Source: an uncultured Planctomycetia bacterium (GTDB lineage: Bacteria > Planctomycetota > Planctomycetia > Pirellulales > PALSA-1355). From it: a DNA stretch of 64,000 bases. The stretch's first letter is position 1, and every line of letters starts with the position of its first letter. The stretch spans positions 672,638 to 736,637 of the forward strand of contig CAWECK010000001.1 in the NCBI GenBank assembly GCA_963807715.1. Reading direction: 5' to 3'. A program made the translations under genes and the position numbers. Below the pieces are notes generated by a model. It saw only the letters and a program-made list of their open reading frames with translations. It made no database searches and was not told where the DNA came from. Shown here one piece after another: positions 2,839 through 40,422 of this stretch.

Positions 2839-3958
2839 ATGATGAGCGAAAAGCGGGTTCGGGTGGGCGTCGTCGGTTTGGCGTTTGGCGCCGAGTTTAT
2901 TCCGATCTACCAGCGGCATCCCGGCGCTCGCGTGCAGGCCATTTGCCAGCGGAACGAGGAGAAGCTGAACCACATCGGCGACCAGTTCGGCGTCGAGCAG
3001 CGGTATTCGAAGTATGAAGATCTGCTCAAAGATCCGCAGATCGACTTCGTACACATCAATTCGCCGATTCCCGATCATGCCCCCATGTCGATCGCCGCCC
3101 TCAAGGCCGGCAAACACGTCATGTGTACGGTGCCGATGGCCACCACGATCGAAGAGTGCCAACAGATCTGCGAGTTGGTCAAGTCGACCGGCCTGCGATA
3201 CATGATGGCCGAAACCGTGGTCTACAGCCGCGAGTTTCTGTTCATCAAAGAGATGTACGAGAAGGGAGAGCTGGGCAAGATCCAGCACCTGGCCGCCTCG
3301 CACCCGCAAGATATGGACGGCTGGCCCGGACTACTGGGAACGGATGATCCCAATGCATTACGCCACGCACGTCGTCAGCCCTTGCTTGGGCCTGATCAAC
3401 GGTCGCGCGGAGTACGTATCGTGCTTCGGCTCGGGCACGGTGCGCGAGGACATCCAGAAGAAGTCGGGCAACAAGTTCGCGGTCGAAAGCTGCCACATCA
3501 AAATCAAGGATTCCGACGTCACCGCCCACATCTGGCGCATGCCTGTACGATGTTGCCCGGCAGTACCGCGAGAGCTTCGACGTTTACGGCACGAAGAAAA
3601 GCTTCGAGTGGACATTGATCGAAGGCGAGCCACACGTGCTGCACACGGCGAAGAAGCCCGAGCTGGAAATCGCGCCAAGGTGGAAGTGCCCGACTTCGCC
3701 CATCGGTTGCCGGAACCGATCCGCCCATTTACCCGCAGCATTCAAGACGCCGAACACCTATCGTTTGTGCAGGGAGGCGGCCACGGCGGCTCGCATCCCC
3801 ACATGGTTCATGAAATGGTGAGCGCCCTCATCGAGAACCGCGATCCTCGCCCCAACGCGACAACCGCCGCCAATTGGACCTGCGTGGGTATTTGCGCTCA
3901 TCAGTCCGCTTTAAAGGGTGGCGAAATCGTTCGCCTGCCGGCGTTTACCCTGGGTTGA
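2839..3958 (+). pseudogene. Gfo/Idh/MocA-family oxidoreductase (cytoplasmic type), frameshifted as assembled
   Basis: 'MMSEKRVRVGVVGLAFGAEFIPIY...ALKAGKHVMCTVPMATTIEEC' gives the N-terminal NAD-binding domain (ORF 2839..3618). It continues in ORF 3344..3958 ('IPMHYATHVVSPCLGL...') with a detour through ORF 3615..3821 ('IEGEPHVLHTAKKPELEIAP'), at least 3 frame changes. Confidence 0.7.
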
Positions 3959-4317
3959 GGTCACGCACAAGACTGCGTGCGGTCGCGCTGGCTTCGGTAC
4001 GTGCGGAACGTGACTTGCCGACACGTTTTCCACCGTGTTCGCGCGCACCAGCATCAAGAGCCGATCTCTTAGCTGACTCATTGCTTGCCGGCAAAACGGC
4101 GCCGCTTGCCCGCCAACCGCCGTACGACGTTGCGCCTCCGAATGCCAGCGACTGCTTGACTCAGTTCGCTTTGCTGAGACAATCGCTGCGGCCCAGGCAT
4201 TCAAGGTTCTTCAGGGAGGATGCAGGACCGAAAGAATCAAACGATCACCTCTTTCCATTCAACCGGCGTTCTGCCCACTTGAGGCCGGGTAAAGCCCATC
4301 ATCTTGCAGGAAGCGAT

Positions 4318-4399
4318 TTCTCTTCGTATTTGCGGCAGGCCAGGCGGCCCCCGTCGCGGGTTGCGACGCCACTGTGTCGAGAATCGGAGAAAAACTGTC
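4318..4399 (+). promoter_or_regulatory. Conserved 5' leader/promoter-proximal region of triple-C1q-like gene copy A, duplicated at 5925..6003
   Basis: About 80 nt upstream of the start codon are near-identical between the two paralogs: 'TTCTTCGTATTTG.GGCAGGC..GGCGG.CCCCGTCGCGGGTTGCGACGCCA.TGT'. The region includes a small hairpin GTCGC-GGGTT-GCGAC and a GGAGA Shine-Dalgarno. Sequence further upstream is not conserved. Confidence 0.4.
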
Positions 4400-5771
4400 A
4401 TGAAAAAACTATTTCCCGGTATCGTTGCCCTTGTCGCGGCCCTGCTGTTTGCCGCGTCGGCTGAGGCAGGCCCCTACGCCCAACTTTCCAGTTCGGAGAA
4501 CCAACTGGGTAGCACGACCCCGAAGGTGGTCACGCTTAACCAGGAGGATGCCGTCAAAGGCATCTCCAACGACAAGGGGGTCGTCACCTTCAAGGAAGCC
4601 GGCACCTATTTCGTGATGGCGGCCGCCCAGGTCGGCAGCGCCGGCGGCAACGGCAAAGGAACCGTGCGGTTGTGGATGCGGCAGAACGGCCAGGAAGTCG
4701 CGAACTCGAATACCGAGCAAACGATCATGCCCGGCTTTACCGCGGTTCTGGTCTGTCAGGGGGTCGCGGAAATCAAAGCCGGCGACAAGCTGGAACTGGT
4801 CTTCGCAGTAAGTACGGCGGGCGAAAACCTGGGGCTGATCGCCTCGAAGCCCGAAGGGCGAACCGGTGGTTCCGAGCATGATTTTCTCGGCGTTCAAGGT
4901 CGATGATCAGGCGTATGCCCAACTTTCCAGCTCCGAAACGCAAACGGCTGGCGCCGCGGGCAAGCTGATCAAGCTCAACAACACCGACGCCGCCAAGAAC
5001 CTCGAGAACAAGCAAGGGGTCGTCACGGTCAAAAACGCCGGAACCTACTTCGTGATGGCCGCGGGCCAGGCCGGCGGCACCGACCCGAACGGAAAAGGCC
5101 GCGTCCGGCTATGGGTGCGACAGAATGGGCAGGACGTGAGCAACTCCAACACCGAACAGACCATCACCCCGGGCTTTACCGCGGTGTTGGTATGCCAGGG
5201 AATTATGGAGTGCAAGGCTGGCGACAAGGTCGAACTGATGCAGTCGGCCAGCGGCACCGATGTGGGCATGGTCGCTTCGGCCCCCAAGGGCGAGTCGGCG
5301 ATTCCCAGCATGATCCTCTCGATCGTCAAGGTGGCCGACGATGCCTATGCCCAACTCTCCAGCGGGCAAACGCAAGCCGGTTCGACCAATGGGCAGGCGA
5401 TCTCGCTCAACCAGACGGATGCCGCCAAGAACATCGAAAACAATAAAGGAACCATCACGATCAAGCAGAATGGCTTTTACTTCGTGATTGCCGCCGGCCA
5501 GGTTGGCAGCACCGACAGCAGCGGCCAGGGATCGGCGCGGCTCTGGCTGCGGCAGAACGGCAAGGACGTCGACAACTCCAACACCGAGCAGACCGTCACG
5601 AGCAAATACACGGCCGTGCTGGTTTGCCAGGGGGTCGGAGAAGCCAAAGCCGGCGACAAGCTGCAACTTTGCCAGTCCGCCAGAGGCTCCGGCGTGGGCA
5701 TGATCGCCTCAGCGCCGCAGGGCGAACCGGCCATTCCCAGCATGATCTTCTCCCTCGTGAAAGTCGATTGA
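4400..5771 (+). CDS. Secreted protein with three tandem C1q/TNF-like (BclA C-terminal-like) domains, copy A. One extra base (c at 4859) shifts the frame as assembled.
   Basis: ATG 4400 with GGAGA 9 nt upstream. Signal peptide 'MKKLFPGIVALVAALLFAASAEA|GP'. Three ~144-146-aa repeats each run 'YAQLSS..Q...LN..DA.K......G..T.K..G.YFV.AA.Q.G....G.G..RLW.RQNG.DV.NSNTEQT....TAVLVCQG....KAGDK..L......G.G..AS.P.GE...PSMI.S..KV'. The Tyr codons of the repeat starts are at 4475, 4914 and 5346. ORFs 4304..4906 and 4866..5771 join if the c at 4859 is removed (copy B has GGGGAACC where A has GGGCGAACC). Confidence 0.65.
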
Positions 5772-5801
5772 GAAACTGGGAAGATTCCGCGGGCAGCGCG
5801 G

Positions 5802-5856
5802 GCTAGTGGCATGCCTTGTCAGAGCCTTACCGGTGCTTGATTAGCGTGCCACTAGC
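5802..5856 (+). terminator. Possible stem-loop downstream of copy A (10-bp perfect stem, 35-nt loop, no T-tract)
   Basis: 'GCTAGTGGCA' at 5802-5811 pairs with 'TGCCACTAGC' at 5847-5856, 31 nt after the stop codon. The large loop and missing U-tract make a terminator role uncertain. Confidence 0.2.
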
Positions 5857-5924
5857 TATGCCGCGCGGAGGCTCAAAGGCGTCTTTCCCGAGAAACACTG
5901 GCGGAGCCAGTGGCACACGGCGGT

Positions 5925-6003
5925 TTTTCTTCGTATTTTGTGGCAGGCTGGCGGTCCCCGTCGCGGGTTGCGACGCCATTGTCTCAAAGTTCGGAGAATA
6001 ACC
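5925..6003 (+). promoter_or_regulatory. Conserved 5' leader of triple-C1q-like gene copy B (paralog of 4318..4399)
   Basis: Aligns with 4318..4399 with a few substitutions or indels. GGAGA lies 6 nt before GTG 6004. Confidence 0.4.
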
Positions 6004-6069
6004 GTGCTGAAAAAACCAGCTCTGGGCATCGTTGTCTTTGTCGCCGCCCTGATCGTTGGGGCGACGTCG

Positions 6070-6080
6070 GAGGCAGCCCC
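6070..6080. repeat. Left copy of the 11-bp target-site duplication GAGGCAGCCCC
   Basis: Identical 11-mer directly abuts both IS ends (6070-6080 and 7628-7638). Confidence 0.75.
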
Positions 6081-7627
6081 GAATGGCACTTAGATTCTTG
6101 TAATGCCTTTAGCCATATTGCGTTTGATCTCGGCGCGGGGCTTTGTCATCCAGTCATAGTGATTGCGTCGCAGCTTTTTCATGCGAGGCTCGTAACGATC
6201 GGGTCGGTCGGCAACTCGATGGGTGGCGATGGCATCGAGCAGGTTTTGGTAGACTCGGAAACGATATGCCGGGTCATGAGCGGTCCGAAGCTCAATCAAT
6301 GGCTGAAAGGCTTCTAGCGTTTGCAGAGTTCCTTTGAAGCTGATGGTCCGTGGCTCGGCATGATGGCTGGAAGCGGCTTGTGCCATGATTGTGCGGATGA
6401 GATTGTAGGCCAGGACATGCGCCCAGACCTCCTTATGCACCAACTCGGGCGTTTTGCAGCGTAGGTGGTGCATTTGCATGGTCGACTTGATGGAACGTAG
6501 ATCGAGTTCGTTGTTCCACCGTGCGCGATACAGAGTCGCCAGATCGTCTTTGGTCGTTTGCTGCGGGTCCAGCAATGTCGTCACCACAACAATGACCTTG
6601 GTCCGGAATCCAGGTTGCGCGACTCGAATCCTCGCTTCTCGAATGGTGATGCACTCAGGGAGTGATTTGTAGGTTTGCCAATCCAGCGAACGAATCGACG
6701 TCGGCTTGAACCAGCGAACGATGTGGTCATCGTCGCCAAGGCGCTCTCCACGTCGAAAGTCCGGTTTGCGGTTGGCTTTGTTTAGGCGACTGACCAAATC
6801 TACGCCGCGCTGTTGGAGCAGCAAAATGTTCGTCCAATTCGCCATCAGACAATCCGCGAGCAGAACATCTCTGGGATCAAGCACGTCCCACAGTCGGCGA
6901 AGTAAGCTGACTTCGCCTTGTCCTTTGCCGGCATATCGGCAAAAGCCGAGACTCACGATTGCCCCACAAGACAACGAAGTAATGGCCCCGATTCGCGCGA
7001 GGGGAAAGCCTAGGCCCGGCTTCTGATTGTAGACTTGCGGATAAGCCTGTTGATTCTCTGGAGTATCCGGCATGGTGACGGTCGTGCCGTCGAACATGTA
7101 CACCCGTCTCCCTTTCCACAGCCAATAATGATCGGCCTGGGCATTCAAAACGCGTCCGACTAAACAGGCGACGGCGGAGAAGAACTTCTCTGGCAACCTT
7201 TTTCTGGCTTGGCAGTAGGCACCCGTGTTGGCTGAGCAGGCTGGCTGCCCTCGGGACACTCGATGGGCGATCAATCGAGCCACAGCGGCTCGGCATGAAT
7301 GATCGGCGCTCAACACCTGGTTCAGAAAAACCCACAAGGTGATGAGTGGCGAAAATATGCGATCCTTCCAAGGTGCCTCGATTGACGCCAGTGCTGGCGC
7401 AATCGTTGCTTCAGAAAGGGCTGTCGCAAAAGGCAGGTTGCCATCTTGCAGAAACTGACGCCTCAGGAATTTCATCTGTTGTCGAACAAGTCCGCGATTA
7501 CAATACCGCATTCTTGGGCCTCCTTGCCGTTGATGGATGTCGTTGACAAACAACCATCTACGCAAGCGAGGCCTTTTTGCCTATGTCACTTCAACCCAAG
7601 CACTTGCTCCATATCTATGTGCCATTC
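6081..7627 (-). mobile_element. IS4-family insertion sequence (1547 bp) with imperfect terminal inverted repeats
   Basis: Left end is 'GAATGGCACTTAGAT'. The reverse complement of the right end is 'GAATGGCACATAGAT' (14/15 match). A single transposase ORF fills the element and its stop codon lies inside the left IR. It is flanked by an 11-bp direct repeat. Removing 6081-7638 restores an intact signal peptide in the host gene. Confidence 0.85.
6090..7565 (-). CDS. IS4-family DDE transposase
   Basis: Intact 491-aa ORF. It contains 'YRARWNNELDLRSIK', the Y-x2-R-x3-E-x6-K signature of IS4-family transposases. Candidate DDE aspartates are in 'VYMFDGTTV' and 'VLLADCLM'. The true start may be an internal Met ('MRYCNRG' or 'MKFLRRQ'). 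Confidence 0.9.
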   Translation of the reverse strand: MRRWLFVNDIHQRQGGPRMRYCNRGLVRQQMKFLRRQFLQDGNLPFATALSEATIAPALASIEAPWKDRIFSPLITLWVFLNQVLSADHSCRAAVARLIAHRVSRGQPACSANTGAYCQARKRLPEKFFSAVACLVGRVLNAQADHYWLWKGRRVYMFDGTTVTMPDTPENQQAYPQVYNQKPGLGFPLARIGAITSLSCGAIVSLGFCRYAGKGQGEVSLLRRLWDVLDPRDVLLADCLMANWTNILLLQQRGVDLVSRLNKANRKPDFRRGERLGDDDHIVRWFKPTSIRSLDWQTYKSLPECITIREARIRVAQPGFRTKVIVVVTTLLDPQQTTKDDLATLYRARWNNELDLRSIKSTMQMHHLRCKTPELVHKEVWAHVLAYNLIRTIMAQAASSHHAEPRTISFKGTLQTLEAFQPLIELRTAHDPAYRFRVYQNLLDAIATHRVADRPDRYEPRMKKLRRNHYDWMTKPRAEIKRNMAKGITRI

Positions 7628-7638
7628 GAGGCAGCCCC
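7628..7638. repeat. Right copy of the 11-bp target-site duplication GAGGCAGCCCC
   Basis: See 6070..6080. Confidence 0.75.
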
Positions 7639-8986
7639 CTACGCGCAACTGTCCAGTTCGGAAAACCAACTGGGCAGCACGGCCCCGAAGGTCGTCAAGC
7701 TTAATCAGAACGATGCGGTCAAAGGCATCTCCAATTCGAACGGCGTCATCACGTTCAAGGAAGCTGGCACCTATTTCGTGATGGCGGCCGCGCAGGTGGG
7801 CAGCGCCAACGGCAAGGGCAAAGGAACCGTGCGGCTATGGATGCGGCAGAACGGACGGGATGTCGCGAACTCGAACACCGTGCAAACGATTGTCCCCGGC
7901 TTTACCGCGGTTCTGGTCTGTCAAGGAGTCGAGGAAATCAAAGCTGACGACAAGCTGGAATTGGTTTACTCGGTGAGCACGGCGGGCGAGAACCTGGGGA
8001 TGATCGCCTCGAAGCCCTATGGGGAACCGGTGGTTCCGAGCATGATCTTCTCGGCGTTCAAGGTCGATGACAACGCGTATGCCCAAATCTCTAGTTCCGA
8101 GACGCAAACAGCCGCCGCCGCGGGTAAGCTGATCACGCTCAATAGCGCCGACGCCGCCAAGAATATCGAGAACAAGGCAGGGGTCGTCACCGTCAAAACC
8201 GCTGGAACCTACTTCGTGATGGCCGCGGGTCAAGTTGGCGGCACCGCTCCCAGCGGAAAAGGCCGCGTCCGGTTGTGGATACGACAGAACGGACAGGACG
8301 TGAGCAACTCCAACAGCGAACAGGCCATCAACCCGGGCTTCACCGCCGTATTGGTCTGCCAGGGAGTGATGGTCTGTAAGGCCGGCGACAAGGTCGAACT
8401 GATCGAATCGGCCAGCGGCAGCGGAGTGGGCATGGTCGCTTCGGCGCCCAAGGGCGAGTCGGCAGTTCCCAGTACGATCCTATCCATCATCAAGGTGGCC
8501 GATGACACCTTTGCCCAACTCTCCAGCGTGCAATCGCAAGCCGGTTCGTCCGAAGGGCAGTTGATCACGCTCAATCAAACCGATGCCGCCAAGAATGTCG
8601 AGAACGCGAGGGGCACCATGTCGATGGCGATTAATAAAGGCACTGTCACGATCTGGCAGGACGGCGTTTACTTTGTGATTGCCGCGGGACAGGTCGGCAG
8701 TACCGACAGCAGCGGCACGGGATCGGTGCGGCTGTGGTTGCGGCAGAACGGCAACGACATCCGCAAATCCAACACCGAACAGACCATCACCAGCAAATAT
8801 ACGGCGGTGCTGGTTTCCCAGGGGGTCGGCGAAGCCAAGGAAGGCGACAAACTGCAACTTTTCCAGTACGCCAGAGGTTCCGGCGTGGGCCTGATCGCCT
8901 CGGCGCCCAAGGGCGAGCCGACCGTTCCCAGCATGATCTTCTCTCTCGTGAAAGTCGATTGAGAAGCGCCGATCGCTATTTCCGGC

Positions 8987-33661: not shown

Positions 33662-36600
33662 TTATTTAATGGCCATCAGGTACGCGATCACGTCGGCCAG
33701 GCTTTGGTGATCGAGTTGCTTTTCCATCCCCTCGGGCATGAGCGAAAGGCCCGTACTCCGCAATTCCTCGATGTTAAGCCGCAGCACCGTGTCGCTGGCT
33801 CCTTCGGCCCGTTTGAGCGTGACGCTGGTGGCCGTTTCGGCGGCGATCATGCCAGAGATCGTGCGGCCGTCGTCGGTCACCAGTAAATAGCTGACGTACT
33901 GCGGATTCACCTCGCGGCTCGGATCCAGCACGTTCAACAAGATGGTTTCCACGCCGCGGTTCTTGATGCTGGCCAAATTCGGGCCGATCTCATGTCCGAC
34001 GTTGTCGGCACGATGGCAAGCAGCGCAAATCTTCTGAAACACAACTTTCCCGCGGCTGGCGTCGCCGGACATGCTCAACACGGGTCGATAAGCTTCGACC
34101 ACGTCTTGCCGCCGACCAAGCTTGACATCGGCCAGCAAGCGAGTCGCACGCTCGCGAAGCTGCGGATCGGAATAGTTGGTCAAGGCTTGCACTCGGGCTG
34201 CCTCCAGCTCACCCGCTTGGAAGGTTCCTTTTTCGATCGCGTCGAGCAAAGCCGATACCCGTTCGCGACGTGCCACCAGTGCCTCGCCTCCCAAAACGCG
34301 CATGCGCGGACTCAACGCAGGCCAAGCTTCCAACAAAAGCGGACCTATTGATGGATCATTAAAGCGACTCAGTGCGGTGAGTGCGGCTTGTTGCACTTCT
34401 TGCGGCTGGCGCTGATCGAGCAACTTGACGAGCAAATCCCGCCCGTCGGCGAACGACCCCAAGACCAGCATATCGATCGCGTCGACCCGTTGCTTGAGCG
34501 GCCCCTTGTCCTCCGTCGCCGCGGTGCGGGCATTGGCGAGCAAATCGTTCAGGATGCGGGTGGCATTGACCGATGCATCCGCCGGGAGCACGTCCTTGAG
34601 CGACCGTCCCTGGCGGGCCAGGCCTTCGATTGCCGCCCGAACGCCGGCCCTTGCCAGGGAAGTCTCATCCTTGGGCAGCCGATCGAGAGCCTGTAAAACG
34701 CGGGCCAATTCCGTCTCCTCCGAACCCGCGGCCCCTTTCTTGGCAGCCGAGCCTGCCTGCGCGACAGGCTCAATAGCAACGTGCGGCCCGTCGGCTCGCG
34801 GCGGAAGGTCGCATCTCCGATCAAATCGACGAACACATCGCCGGCATGGTTTCGCAGCGAACTTTGAATCGCCAACCGCATCCACGAGTTGCCGGATTCG
34901 CGGCGAGCCAGAGCCGTAAGCGCCGGACGGCCTCCTGGCTTTGCAGTTCGCCCAGCGTGAATGCCAATTGATAGCGAACCTGCAAGTCATCGTCGCCCGC
35001 CATCGCGACAAGTTTCGCGGTGGGGTTCGGCGTCGTCTTCGAGTCTGCGCCGACCAACCGTTCCGAAAGCCGGATGGCATGCCGGCGCACGTCCGGATGG
35101 TGATCGTCCAGCGCGCGGGCAATGATATCCGCCGACAGGCCATTCATACCGGCTAGCGCGTACAGGGCATGCATGCGTCCCAGCGGGGAAACCGAGTTCG
35201 CGGCGAGCCTCGTCAGCGGCTCGATCGCTGCCTGATCCTGCCGCTCGTACAACAACCGCGCAGCCGTTTCGCGATGCCAGGCATTCGCGTGAGCCAACGT
35301 GGCCACAAGTTCCCCGGTCGTGGCGCTGCCGAGTCGCGGAAGTTTCGGCTGCACGAAACCCTGCTCGGGCACCACGCGATAGATTCGCCCTCGATCTCGA
35401 CCGCTGGTCAGATCGAGATGTTTTTTGATCATCGGCGGCAGACTGTCCGGATGCTCGATCACTTCCCGGTACACGTCCACGATGCACAACGACCCGTCTG
35501 GCGCGTTGGCGAACTGGGCCGGCCGGAACCAGATATCGCTGGACGCCACGAATTCGCTCTCTTTGTCCATCCGGCTGGCGACGAACTGCAAGCCATCCAA
35601 GGCCAGCTTCTTGCGATGCACCAGGTTGCTACCCACGTCCCCCACGATCGCGATGCCCCGGAGATCCTCAGGAAGAGCGTTGCCGCGATAGATCGTCACG
35701 CCGGTCGCCCCGGTGAAGTACCCGGCCGCGCGGCCCCCGCCTTCAACCAACCCCTTCACGGCTCCCGAAACCCGCAACCGCGTCCGTACGATCCGCCACG
35801 GTTCGATCGGGCTTGTGCGATAGACTTCCGCCTGCGGACCGTCGGCGGCGATGCTGACGCGCGCCGCCGGTGCCGATAAATAAGGGTTCCGGGCTAGGTA
35901 GCGGTCTTCGAACATCACCTGCTGGATATGGTCGCTATTGGAGCAAACGAATTTATGCCCCCAATCGTCAAAGCTCAGCCCGTGCTGGGCGCCGCCGCTG
36001 GTCGCCGTCATTCGCAGGCTGCGCGGATCAAAGCTGAAATCGCGGCCGCGCACCGAGAGGGGCTCGGCATCTTCGTGGGCCAATTGCCGAATCGTGCCGC
36101 CCGAAGAACTGGTCGCTCCTTCGATGCGATTGTCCAGCGTCCAGGCCATGCTGTTCATCAATCCCTGGACATTGCTGCGGCCGAAGCCGCTAAACACGAC
36201 GCGGCGAATGTCGGCGCGGCCATCGCCATTGGTATCCTTGCAATAGAAGATATCCGGAGGCACGCCAATAAAAATGCCGCCGTCGTAGCAGGCTACGGCC
36301 GTCGGCCAGGATAGTTTGTCGACATAGACGCTGCTCTTATCGAAGCGACCGTCGCCGTCGGTATCTTCCAACAGGCGGATTTCTCCGAGAAAATCGTCCT
36401 TCTGTTCGGAATAGTCCCGCATTCCCACGACGAACATCCGGCCATTTTCATCAAAAGCCATCGCCACAGGGCTGGCTACCAGGGGTTCAGCGGCCACTTG
36501 CTCGACGCGAAAACCCGGCTGGACCTTGAAGGTGCTCAGCGCCGCGGCTGGCTCGACAGGCGGAATCCGCGGCAACTCTTTGGAAAAATCTTCTTCAGCC

Positions 36601-36674
36601 GCGGCTTGGCCATGCACGGTCGCCGGCAATACGCCCCACGACAGGGCGGCCAGCAGTGGTAGACAACGAAACAT
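33662..36674 (-). pseudogene. PVC-type membrane-bound-dehydrogenase-domain / HEAT-repeat / c-type heme-binding protein. Two frame changes.
   Basis: ATG 36674 opens 'MFRCLPLLAALSWGVLPATVHG' (signal peptide). 'FKVQPGFRVEQVAAEPLVASPVAMAFDENGRMFVV...DTDGDGRFD...DTNGDGRAD' is the beta-propeller dehydrogenase domain (ORF 34821..36707). HEAT-like repeats cross ORF 34549..34881. The C-terminus (ORF 33662..35143) has 'GKVVFQKICAACHR...LSLMPEG', a CxxCH heme domain. Confidence 0.75.
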
Positions 36675-36805
36675 CCAGACAGACAGGACAGGCTTTGGAT
36701 AGGCCAAGGGACACCTGCGTGGATTTTTGGTGGAACGTAAAGGCGGGAGAATTCTGAAGCTAAGCCTAACTTGCGCGTCGGCGACCGGCTAGCTGCGCGT
36801 GCAGG

Positions 36806-39023
36806 TTATTGGAGCTTCGGGGGCTGGCGCAACTGGAACTGTTTTGCGTTCCACCCGAGCGCTGAGGATACTTCGGCCGGGTATTCCCAGCCGGTCTTTT
36901 CGTCGTCGGACTTTTCTTGGTAAATCCGCACCTTCGAACGCTCCGTCGCCATCGCAACGGCGCTCGGCGTGTCGAGGTACCGGAGCACGTTGAGGAAATA
37001 CGGCCCGTCGCGGTGTGAGCGCGGTAGATTCCAAAGATCCAGCCGAGCAATCTTCGGCTCGAACAGCGAAGCATACAAGGCCACGCCGGCCATTTGCCGA
37101 TTGCTTTGCAGCCACAGGGGCACGTCCTTTTCAGCAGGCAATTCGCGCACGGCCTGCACGGCTCGCCGCACGTCCCAGACCTGCATCCCTTCGAGCGTCT
37201 GGCCCAGCAGCATGAACCGGCGGCGATGCTGGATCTGTTTCTTGTCCGAAGGATCCCAAGCCGTCGGCCCCACGCCGCGCGGCGCCACGTAGGCCATTGT
37301 CCACTTGAACGACTTGAACATCTGCTCCATTTCGGCGAATTCCTTGCCTGCGATTTCGCCGCCGGCGACTTCGCCGCCGTTCGCCTCGGTCGGCTTCCTC
37401 TTTCAATTCCTCGGCAAATGCCGCGCGCATCGTGGAGAGCCAGCGGTTCCATTCTTCAGCGTCGAGCACGTTCAGCACGGTCAGATCGGCCTTGTCGGGC
37501 TTGCCGGCGTTTTCAGTTTTTTCTGCCTCACCGGCTTTTTGCAGGCCGGCCTGCTGGGCGGCACGTTGGGCGATGTAGAGTCGCAGGCGGATCGGTCCCT
37601 GGCTGGTGAAATCGTAAGCGGCCAGGCGGACTCCGCGGCGCTCGACGGCAAAGGCTTCTTTCACGTCCAACGATTCCGTAACACTCGGCCAACCGCGAAA
37701 GCATTTTTCTTGCAAGTCCTTCAGCGCCTGATCGCGGCTTGCCTCCCAGGCCGAAGCGCTCTCGGGCACGTTGGGCGCCGGAGCCTGCGCGGTGAAGGTC
37801 TCCTGGATCTTGGTATTGATCTGATCCGCGGGCAATTCCTCAAACACCTTCAATTGCTCGGGCTCGAACAGCGGCACCGCGGCGACCTCGATCTTTGGCT
37901 CTTCTCCCTTTAAGAAGCGATTGAACCAATGAAAGGCCGCCACCTGGAGTTCCTGAATATCCTTATGCGGCCCTTCGCTGATCTGCAAGCCGAAGTTCTT
38001 GTCGGCCCCGTACAGCCGATAGATCTTGCGCACCTGTTGATGAATCCGCTCGATCCCTTCCAGGGGGAAGATGCCGTCTTTGTCGGTATTCGACAGCAGC
38101 AGCGGCCGTGGCGCAACCAGCGCCGCCACCTGGGCATAATCCCAGCGATACGTATTCACCATGAACATGCAGTCGCAATGGCCTTCGACGGTGCCATCGA
38201 CGACGTGGTTTTCCAGATCGGCGATGCCGGCCACCGGCACGGCGACCTTGATCCGCTCGTCGAGGGCCGCAATCCACCAGCTATACGCGCCGCCGCCCGA
38301 GCGGCCCGTCACGCCGATCTTCTCGCCATCGACCTCCGGCCGCGATTGCAGATAGTCGAGTGCTCGAATGCAGTTCCAGGCCTCGACGCCGGCCGGCGTA
38401 TAGCCACGGCAATTCCACCACCACATGTTTTCGCGATAGGTGCCGTGGTGCAGCCCCTCGATCTCGCCAAGCTGCAGCGTATCGATGATCAGGCAAACGT
38501 AACCGTGACGGGCAAACCAGCCGGCATGGTGCTGATACTTCGTCTTGCTGCCGTAGCTGACGCCGTCCTTCTTGAGTGTTGCCGTGGCCGCAGACATAGA
38601 GGACCGCGGGAGCCGGTTTTGTCAGTCCCTTGGGAAGGTACAGGTTGCCGGTCACATACAGGCCGGGCCGCGATCTGAAAATCAACCTTTTCGACCGTGA
38701 ACTGCTCGTGATCGACGCGTGCCGGTCGTGGCCGCATTCAGCGGCGTCCGCTCCGGCAGCGGATCGAGGCCGAGCATTTCGAACAGTTGCTGCCGGTAAC
38801 GGTCGCGGCGGCTGGTCCAATCTTCGAGCGTGTGGATGTCGGCCAGCGACGCCTTGGCCAGTTTGGCCGTTTCCTGGCGGAAGTATTCGGCCAGCATCTG
38901 ATCGCCACGCCGCGTATCGGGCTTCGCCGCGTCGGGTTTCGCCGTTTCGTCGGTCCGCAACGGCAAGGCCGTTCCCAGCAAGGCAAGGCCAAGACCGATA
39001 GCCCTGATCGCGAACGGTTTCAT
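36806..39023 (-). pseudogene. Secreted acetyl-xylan-esterase-like alpha/beta hydrolase, several frame changes
   Basis: ATG 39023 lies 5 nt after AGGAG and opens 'MKPFAIRAIGLGLALLGTALPL'. 'FRSRPGLYVTGNLYLPKGLTKPAPAVLYVCGHG' lies in the tail of ORF 38281..40422. The core with 'KIGVTGRSGGGAYSWWIAALDERIK' (G-x-S-x-G) is in ORF 37131..38597. The C-terminus is in ORF 36806..37330. Confidence 0.65.
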
Positions 39024-39047
39024 TTCGACTCCTGAAGGGAGTGATCG

Positions 39048-40422
39048 TTAAAAAAGTTCTCGCAGAGGCATTGCGTCGCCGTCCACCAGGTATTGAGGCC
39101 GGCCGTTCAGGTCGGTCAGCGCCGTGCGCCGATAGTCGATTCCCAAATTGTGGTACAGCGTGGCAAACACCTCGCCGAACGTTACCGGCCGCTCGACGGC
39201 TTCCCCGCCCAGCCGATCGGTGGCACCGATGACCTGGCCCGTTTTCATGCCTCCGCCAGCCAGCAGCGCGGCCGAAACGCGCGGCCAATGGTCGCGGCCT
39301 ACCTGCTTGCTGATCTTCGGCGTGCGGCCGAACTCGCCCCAGGCGATCACGGTCACGTCCTTGTCGAGTCCCCGGGCATGCAGATCTTCGACCAGCGCGG
39401 CCACGGCGTTGTCGAATACCGGAAAGTCTTCCAACTCCCGTTTGAAGATCGAGTTGCCCGGTCCGCCATGCCAATCCCACTTGCTGTAGTTGACCGTCAC
39501 GACGCGGCAGCCGGCCTCGACCAGCCGGCGTGCCATAAGCAAGCTTTGCGGCACCCGTGGGGCACCGTTTCCGTCCATGTGGATCGTTTCGTCGCCGGTG
39601 TCCATAGCGGGCGACGATCCGCGGGTCTTCCTTGGACAGGTCGAGCGCATCGACGAGCCGCGACGAAGTCAGCACGTCGAACGCCTGTTGACCGAACTGG
39701 TCCATGGCGCTGCATCGATCCGCTGGCGTCGCGGTCGCGGCGCAGGCGGTCCATGCTGGCCAGCAGCAGTCTTGCGGTCGCCGAGCCGCCGGGGCGTGAT
39801 CCCCTGCAGAACCATGTCCTCTCGGTTCGGATCCCAGGCCGGCCGAAGCGGCGTTTGGCCGACGCCCAAGAAACCCGGCCCCAGGCTCGTTGTAGGGGCC
39901 GTGGGTGCAGGTATAGCACAGGCTTACGAACGGCGGGACGCCACGCCGCGCTTGGCCCTGAAGCTTGGAGACCGACCGAGCCAAACTGCGGCCAACCGCC
40001 GGCCGGAACGCCCCGTTTGGGATGATGCCCGGTGATAGCATTGGTAGGCGTTGTGGTCGTCTTGCGCAGTCGACAATCGAACGGATCGGCACCAGCTTGT
40101 CCATGATCCCGGCCAATTGCGGCAGGTGTTCACAGATTTCGATGCCCGGCACGTTGGTCTTGATCGGCTTGTGCGGGCCGGCGATCTCGGAGGGAGCGTC
40201 GGGCTTAAGATCGAACATGTCCTGGTGCGGCGGGCCGCCGACCAGGTAGATCATGATCACGGCCTTTTGCGAATTGCGAATGCCGGCGTGCGCTTCGGCT
40301 CTGAGCAGGTCTGCCAGCGAGAGGCCGCCCAGACCAAGGCTTCCCATCCGCAGAAAATCGCGGCGCGTCAGGCCGTGGGGGTGCGGTTTGCCGTTTTGCG
40401 GCTGGCTCAAATCAAACGCCAT
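39048..40422 (-). pseudogene. DUF1501-domain protein, several frame changes. It sits 24 nt upstream of the esterase-like gene.
   Basis: ATG 40422 opens 'MAFDLSQPQNGKPHPHGLTRRDFLRMGSLGLGGLSLADLLRAEA...VIMIYLVGGPPHQDMFDLKP'. The C-terminal half is in ORF 39048..39650 ('IAWGEFGRTPKISKQVGRDHWPRV...GGGMKTGQVIGATD'). The middle is only readable by switching frames. Confidence 0.75.

Follow-up and report, generated by a model that had tools for sequence, protein, structure and literature searches.

Single-chain formats of TNF, C1q and adiponectin serve as a major tool of protein engineering. For the C1q version, 3-residue linkers of the Gly/Ser type sufficed since the termini are found at the trimer's base, and the C1q A, B and C genes are adjacent, in the order used for that construct (PMC4774423). 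Beside such engineered constructs, a signal peptide followed by three tandem gC1q domains is already known in molluscs (PMC5519582); HcC1qDC6, of 444 aa, carries its C1q domains at residues 24-159, 167-302 and 305-443 (PMC5519582; PMC10672478), and the word trimer has 0 occurrences in the HcC1qDC6 paper (PMC5519582). Among bacterial proteins, the N-terminal domain of BC2L-C (BC2L-CN) and Photorhabdus PLTL bind glycans in inter-protomer pockets (PMC12914763). Here we describe a gene, hereafter gene 1, at 4400-5771 on the + strand of a window of 64,000 nt (the whole stretch of DNA that was analysed) from an uncultured Planctomycetia bacterium (contig CAWECK010000001.1 of assembly GCA_963807715.1, positions 672,638-736,637 of the forward strand). 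The best explanation of our observations is that its product is probably a Sec-exported, natural single-chain pseudo-trimer of the C1q/TNF/BclA-C type with a mass of ~45 kDa. Taken alone, its structural identity as a single-chain pseudo-trimer is very likely on the predicted models, and a binding or lectin-like role, argued by analogy, has about an even chance of being correct. In the literature we found no description of a natural single-chain trimer of the C1q/TNF superfamily, no paper linking Planctomycetes with C1q or BclA and none reporting the three-C1q architecture in bacteria. The view of an earlier note on this DNA, that the architecture is not a described bacterial family, agrees with these searches; the architecture itself is shared by molluscs (PMC5519582).

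Gene 1 runs from an ATG at 4400 to a stop codon at 5769-5771 and encodes 456 aa once one base is removed. The product consists of a 23-residue signal-like prepeptide and three head-to-tail repeats, each opening with YAQLSS, and its C-terminus is the last beta strand of repeat 3. The prepeptide (4400-4468, residues 1-23, MKKLFPGIVALVAALLFAASAEA and then GP) combines an MKK n-region with a hydrophobic core of Kyte-Doolittle (KD) value 3.25, and inspection by sequence rules found neither a lipobox Cys nor a twin-arginine motif. In the prepeptides of 53 bacterial orthologs, which are 19-27 residues long, Ala occupies position -1 in all but one (52/53) and A, S, V, L or C occupies position -3. Given the n-region, the hydrophobic core and a site of the A-x-A type, secretion through Sec and signal peptidase I (SPI) is plausible, as is the cleavage at AEA/GP that the earlier note had proposed. 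The mature protein begins two residues ahead of the first strand and has no Gly-X-Y collagen-like stalk N-terminal to the head. Repeat 1 (4469-4907, residues 24-169) carries the extra base and is followed by repeat 2 (4908-5339, residues 170-313) and by repeat 3 with the stop codon (5340-5771, residues 314-456). The opening Tyr codons, TAC or TAT, lie at 4475, 4914 and 5346, just where they had been placed before, and counted from them the repeats are 146, 144 and 141 aa long. Pairwise identity between the repeats is 60-65%, higher than the ~50% first estimated, with alignment scores 32-40 standard deviations above shuffled controls. The invariant skeleton quoted in the earlier note is visible in the three-way alignment, with YAQLSS, G-YF, LW, NG-DV-NSN-EQ, KAGD and P-GEP-PS kept across all three repeats. 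Conservation is lowest in four segments, 36-41 (lying between strands one and two), 81-86, 110-113 and 138-143, which by analogy with the gC1q topology would sit at the apex. The conserved D50, D196 and D340, together with the NSN loops, are candidates only, picked from the sequence, for a C1q-type Ca2+ site at the apex of the trimer axis.

The AlphaFold2 model of the gene 1 protein, computed for one chain with an alignment of 69 full-length homologs, has a mean predicted local distance difference test score (pLDDT) of 94.7 and a predicted template modelling score (pTM) of 0.91. It contains the same series of beta strands in every repeat, with the signal peptide as a low-confidence helix apart from the beta domains. 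When this model was compared with the PDB by Foldseek, the six best full-length matches were all engineered single-chain trimers, aligned over ~460 columns: APRIL-BAFF-BAFF (4zch), Cbln1 (5kca), the C1q head (5hzf/5hkj) and adiponectin (4dou). Their template modelling (TM) scores are 0.65-0.72 normalised on the query (TMq) and 0.70-0.80 on the targets of 400-420 residues (TMt), falling to 0.39 on the 807-residue 5kca; among them are 5hzf (TMq 0.72, TMt 0.80, root-mean-square deviation 4.1), 4dou (TMt 0.78) and 4zch (E 7e-21). Ranked after these six come matches to a single repeat, namely BclA-C, F-BclA, BxpB, 4-1BBL, RANKL and TNF. A homolog from bdelloid rotifers (P0083), modelled separately, behaves alike (pLDDT 91.9, pTM 0.89, TMt 0.81 to 4dou). 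Taken together, the two models have single-domain matches to BclA, F-BclA, 4-1BBL, RANKL, TNF, C1QL and Cbln1 with a probability of 1.00 and TMt of 0.6-0.8, and the top single-domain match of the gene 1 model is 3tyj/9h38 (BclA-C and F-BclA) at a TMt of ~0.77. At the fold level each repeat is thus predicted to be a jelly roll of the C1q/TNF superfamily, and the pTM values and full-length superpositions (TMt 0.70-0.81 over the two models) point to three protomers around a threefold axis with their termini at the base. The intramolecular pseudo-trimer proposed in the earlier note is in this way supported in silico, by a confident fold and by its superposition on single-chain trimers of the C1q/TNF type. 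In the model only 5 and 4 residues connect the final strand of a repeat to the opening strand of its successor, and the repeat envelopes given by the hidden Markov model are contiguous. Junctions of 4-5 residues would be enough to close the trimer because the termini of the fold lie at its base (PMC4774423), and by this analogy the natural junctions would be equivalent to the engineered linkers.

Kinship to the jelly rolls of C1q, TNF and BclA, as first suggested, is supported by these structural matches but not by the Pfam profiles. Within Pfam the repeats make contact with BclA_C (PF18573) alone: of 85 family repeats, 25 match it at E<=0.01 (best 1.1e-5). Repeats 2 and 3 of gene 1 score 19.5 and 19.0 bits (E 1e-3 and 1.3e-3) over positions 2-107 of the 128 in the profile, whose gathering cutoff is 38 bits, and repeat 1 gave no match to this profile. 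TNF (PF00229) reaches 16.1 bits over 22 residues only, under its gathering cutoff of 23 bits. C1q (PF00386) gave no match even at E<=10 for the gene 1 protein or its repeats, and a precomputed match to it exists in one homolog only, the eukaryote-like P0103. Aligned by hhalign with a provisional gC1q sequence of adiponectin, the repeat profile obtained a probability of 2.4%. Sequence searches of PDB chains yielded nothing significant for the protein or for the repeat profile (best for the profile 5hba_A, E 1.1), and NCBIfam holds no family for the gene 1 protein. Pfam matches of the full protein to FAA_hydrolase, Lsr2 and PPC were set aside as sub-threshold noise.

The best homologs come from metagenome-assembled genomes (MAGs) of Planctomycetia and Gemmataceae; a word-indexed search returned 111 clusters, of which nearly all full-length ones are 445-490 aa long with three repeats. 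Three domains are fixed in ~60 full-length planctomycete orthologs, and the Planctomycetota loci of species-representative genomes also have three. A single domain behind a signal peptide is found at loci of Nitrospira, Xanthobacteraceae, Acetobacteraceae, Gammaproteobacteria, Methylococcaceae, Legionellaceae, Parachlamydiales and Parcubacteria. A one-repeat profile reached 4101 clusters, 797 of them at E<=1e-10, and the majority of the top 150 have one domain and a length of 155-200 aa; these distant one-repeat homologs fit with a homotrimer ancestor. Among the best 150 representatives the matched stretches number 1, 2, 3 or 6, plus a single 4 in a protein of 424 aa, too short for four full domains, where one domain seems to have been hit twice, in separate parts. 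Genuine two-domain proteins adjoin a one-domain paralog, as '1+2' at L041 and as '2+1' at L045 and L046, and the L041 and L045 pairs keep the same D1-D2-D3 order with the break at different junctions. The close homologs have three repeats, the two-repeat forms sit beside a one-repeat gene, and the contrary pattern named in the earlier note, homologs that usually carry one or two repeats and oligomerise conventionally, was not seen in a form that would count against the single chain. The split pairs (L041:4535-6011, L045:4001-5516, also L046) belong to a low-GC bacterial lineage and distribute the three domains over two overlapping adjacent genes. Downstream of both kinds of pair lies a translationally coupled sensor gene that joins dCache_1 to an adenylate/guanylate cyclase, an arrangement that may reflect cooperation of a secreted trimer with a sensor in the periplasm. 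In P0124 the repeats are 58-66% identical to one another and at most 40% to others, and the protist-type P0117 and P0118 are similar; as these repeats are closest to each other, separate triplications in the two lineages are suggested by the sequences, with concerted evolution as the alternative. The domain also forms the C-terminal tip of fibre-like or collagen-like proteins with long spacers (P0136, P0155, P0231, P0111), Gly-X-Y repeats occurring only in distant relatives such as P0136. A Foldseek search of BFVD retrieved predicted viral proteins of a like compact three-domain arrangement, including one from Mimivirus AB-566-O17 (TMq 0.81) and a 425-aa phage 'C1q domain-containing protein'. 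Across the relatives, the theme that recurs is a closed set of three domains.

We propose a model in which a single polypeptide would arrange its three jelly-roll domains about a pseudo-threefold axis. Covalent linkage would make assembly after export independent of concentration or dilution, and would fix the order of the three positions. The ancestor may have been a one-domain secreted protein that formed homotrimers, made into a single chain by triplication or by gene fusion through 1+2 and 2+1 intermediates. The product would then be a soluble binding head with three near-equivalent sites, like the C1q heads, the tips of BclA and of phage fibres, and the bacterial TNF-like lectins. We infer the intramolecular trimer in the real protein, its binding function and the location of its binding surface from these models and analogies.

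As assembled, the open reading frame of gene 1 is broken into frame A (4400-4906) and frame B (4866-5771) by a 1-nt insertion at 4854-4859 (+ strand, gaaGGGCgaa). Deletion of any single base in this interval, including the c at 4859 that had been singled out before, restores ...KPEGEPVVPSMIF... and the 456-aa protein, and when gene 1 is aligned to the paralog and two orthologs it has exactly one surplus base, GGG(C)GAA. Programmed frameshifting at 4854-4859 was considered and rejected: there is no slippery run, the orthologs are in frame and the frameshifts of relatives lie elsewhere. The paralog, gene 2, has its leader and 5′ end at 5920-6080 (+ strand), with a GTG start at 6004 and the signal peptide VLKKPALGIVVFVAALIVGATSEAAP, and is cut at 6080 by an insertion sequence (IS) of the IS4 type. 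This element occupies 6081-7627 on the - strand (1547 bp), with 15-bp terminal inverted repeats GAATGGCAC(T/A)TAGAT and a gene at 6090-7565 for a 491-aa DDE transposase (DDE_Tnp_1, PF01609, E 5e-15). It is flanked by an 11-bp target duplication, GAGGCAGCCCC, at 6070-6080 and 7628-7638. The insertion point falls exactly at the junction of the signal peptide and the mature protein, and the element is present in a single copy within the window. The remainder of gene 2 (7628-8962, + strand), whose mature part begins 1.8 kb downstream of gene 1, holds three repeats 82% identical to those of gene 1 and has been left without a signal peptide; copy 2 is inactivated by the IS in this genome. The repeats of the two copies match by position, with 81-87% identity on the diagonal vs ~60% off it. 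Specific loops of repeat 3 tolerate insertions: in gene 2 (8480-8520) and its close relatives nine residues, ARGTMSMAI, stand ahead of the GT-T strand, and in P0053 (544 aa) an insert of ~85 residues separates the strand ending in AAGQIGDE from that starting with KGTVRFW.

The conserved 5′ leader of gene 1 (4313-4399, + strand, ~90 nt) is 76% identical to the stretch at 5920-6080 upstream of the paralog and includes a GGAG Shine-Dalgarno sequence at 4386-4389. A 6-bp hairpin, CGTCGCGGGTTGCGACG, occurs within the window only at 4352-4368 and 5959-5975, ~30-35 nt before both starts, and recurs upstream of orthologs in six other genomes (L001, L003, L005, L009, L010, L012), with one compensatory change from G-C to A-U. 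It may be an mRNA-stabilising or regulatory element. No relevant Rfam match was obtained for 4100-6100, and scans for sigma-70 promoters and intrinsic terminators near gene 1 gave nothing exceeding shuffled sequence. The neighbouring genes are typical of planctomycetes (PSD/PSCyt, DUF1552, DUF1501, DUF7133-HEAT-cytochrome c), with oxidoreductases and an esterase among them. Beyond a single genus the sole recurrent neighbour is Hsp20, at 4 of 23 one-domain loci, an association too weak to build on; its gene lies ~1-4 kb from the one-domain homolog at three Nitrospira-type loci and one gammaproteobacterial locus (L017:6664-7140, L023:4619-5089, L025:3436-3906, L030:6770-7315).

The disruption of both copies raises the alternative that the locus is a functionless relic, a pair of pseudogenes in this organism of which one is frameshifted and the other interrupted by the IS. 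Gene 1 can be read through only after one base is removed, gene 2 is severed from its signal peptide by an element whose target duplication is intact, and frameshifted or truncated relatives are common (P0108-P0110, L009, L010, L012). The ratio of nonsynonymous to synonymous substitution rates (dN/dS) between the two copies is nevertheless 0.24, with 0.23 before and 0.25 after the frameshift site; the gene 1 family protein is under purifying selection, and, since the ratio is equal on both sides, any decay is very recent. Dozens of orthologs are intact, and every frameshifted one derives from a long-read 'MFD' MAG, a pattern suggestive of indel errors. Unrelated genes of the window are split across frames as well (1422-2613, 2839-3958, 33662-36707 and 37131-40422), examples being a GFO_IDH_MocA Rossmann domain cut at ~1760 and a DUF7133-HEAT part separated from its HEAT-cytochrome c part near 35000, which suggests either frequent assembly indel errors or many pseudogenes. 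Because of these other split genes, the splits in MFD MAGs and the unchanged dN/dS across the site, we regard the extra base at 4854-4859 as a likely, though not proven, assembly indel and the IS as real, and we consider it unlikely that the locus is a relic.

The repeats might instead trimerise with those of other chains, as stacked homotrimers or by domain swapping, to build rods, lattices or a surface layer. The fibre-like and collagen-like proteins tipped by the same domain need chain-to-chain trimerisation, the BFVD matches to tail fibres and collagen-repeat proteins agree with it, and a single-chain AlphaFold2 run is blind to such an option. Stacked trimers would, however, need a linker spanning the whole domain because both termini lie on the same face (PMC4774423), and the inter-repeat connections are far shorter, whereas P0136 has long collagen-like spacers. 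The pTM denotes a well-defined compact arrangement, and the '1+2' and '2+1' pairs, together with the lack of forms with 4 or 5 domains in the best 150 representatives, argue that three domains make up a closed unit, leaving trimerisation between chains improbable. An origin of gene 1 as a phage-derived receptor-binding tip, in prophage cargo or a prophage remnant rather than as a cellular secreted protein, appears more remote still, to the point of being very hard to credit. The fold is common to many phage and giant-virus proteins, some of them compact and three-domain, and there are weak matches to the C-terminal part of PHROG phrog_25635 (E 6e-18 for P0001, E 4.5e-07 for repeat 3 of the window). 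Against this, the predicted cleavable Sec signal peptide is conserved in the 53 orthologs, neither a shaft nor an N-terminal anchoring domain is present, the nearby genes (oxidoreductases, an esterase and the planctomycete-specific PSD/PSCyt/DUF1552) are non-phage, and the gene-specific 5′ leader is conserved across genomes.

Several points also weigh against the single-chain pseudo-trimer itself, which remains our preferred explanation. The profile links to C1q, TNF and BclA_C all lie under curated thresholds, and both copies are disrupted as assembled. The intramolecular trimer and the oligomeric state are predictions throughout, from a model computed on one chain and so blind to inter-chain alternatives. 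In 15 planctomycete loci compared we found no conserved neighbour genes hinting at function. Finally, position-specific divergence of the repeats is minimal in the three-way alignment, amounting to two additional residues in repeat 1 and a single E/E/Q column, and hence there is no sign of differentiated faces; the freedom of each face to diverge, foreseen in the earlier note, is barely realised in bacteria, where all three repeats retain the same conserved residues.

In rotifers the three repeats have diverged further, to 32-41% identity. The bdelloid Adineta steineri has some 20 annotated homologs with three domains, which share 36-40% identity with the bacterial protein, and more lie on eukaryote-like contigs of a metagenome; family members (L040:8001-9473 on CAJNOI010000072.1, P0083-P0105, L047, L048) are carried on large eukaryotic contigs. 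The P0083 gene is intronless with a GC content of 38% and 29.5% at third codon positions (GC3), which is host-like, and the spans of its flanking genes exceed their coding lengths. Judged from these sequences, it is likely that the gene moved horizontally between bacteria and rotifers and then expanded in rotifers. The rotifer-type P0112 (972 aa) has six domains as two three-domain units in tandem and is either a true fusion of adjacent paralogs or the result of merging two gene models, mirroring the tandem pair of the window. The stages seen today range from one-domain genes over adjacent 1+2 and 2+1 pairs and genes with three domains to the rotifer gene model with six. We tentatively extend our model to a domain family that repeatedly made its obligate homotrimer single-chain, with all stages still extant, and that passed between bacteria and rotifers, in which it grew into a large family, the three positions diverged strongly and the proteins possibly became pattern-recognition molecules; this broader account is somewhat less probable than its negation. 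If repeated conversion to a single chain and divergence in rotifers are true, the family would be a natural model for symmetric oligomers becoming asymmetric single-chain receptors or lectins. The graded series from one domain through split pairs to a single chain offers material for studying the fusion of homo-oligomers and the later breaking of symmetry, and the expanded, host-adapted rotifer family is a candidate for inter-kingdom transfer of an immune-type recognition module. Furthermore, the ~4100 clusters delimit a large family of C1q-like proteins secreted by bacteria that is as yet uncurated, and a widespread natural single-chain version would mean that evolution reached the engineers' solution and would supply native, optimised junction sequences.

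Complement C1q builds one head from three different gC1q modules encoded by the A, B and C genes, to which the '1+2' and '2+1' gene pairs of L041 and L045 are analogous; its collagen stalks and its hexamer of heterotrimers (PMC4774423) have no sign of a counterpart in the window protein. BC2L-CN and PLTL are bacterial TNF-type jelly-roll trimers and offer a functional model for a soluble bacterial head, although they carry one domain per chain, fall outside the top-ranked structural matches listed and have no sequence motifs in common with the window protein. The C-terminal domain of BclA, together with F-BclA from the spores of Bacillus, gives the best structural match for a single domain and is likewise a bacterial, extracellular and trimeric tip domain, but in BclA a collagen-like stalk precedes the one domain and the trimer forms between chains, whereas the window protein has no stalk and three domains per chain. 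The mollusc proteins HcC1qDC6, HcC1qDC5 and CfC1qDC-2 share with it a signal peptide, three tandem domains with minimal linkers and a similar length; they are animal secreted pattern-recognition lectins with true Pfam/SMART C1q domains, and the likeness is one of architecture. The engineered single-chain trimers (4DOU, 5HZF/5HKJ, 4ZCH, 5KCA) likewise hold three jelly-roll protomers in one chain with very short linkers, but they are man-made and only 9-16% identical, whereas the window protein is natural and its junctions lie within conserved sequence.

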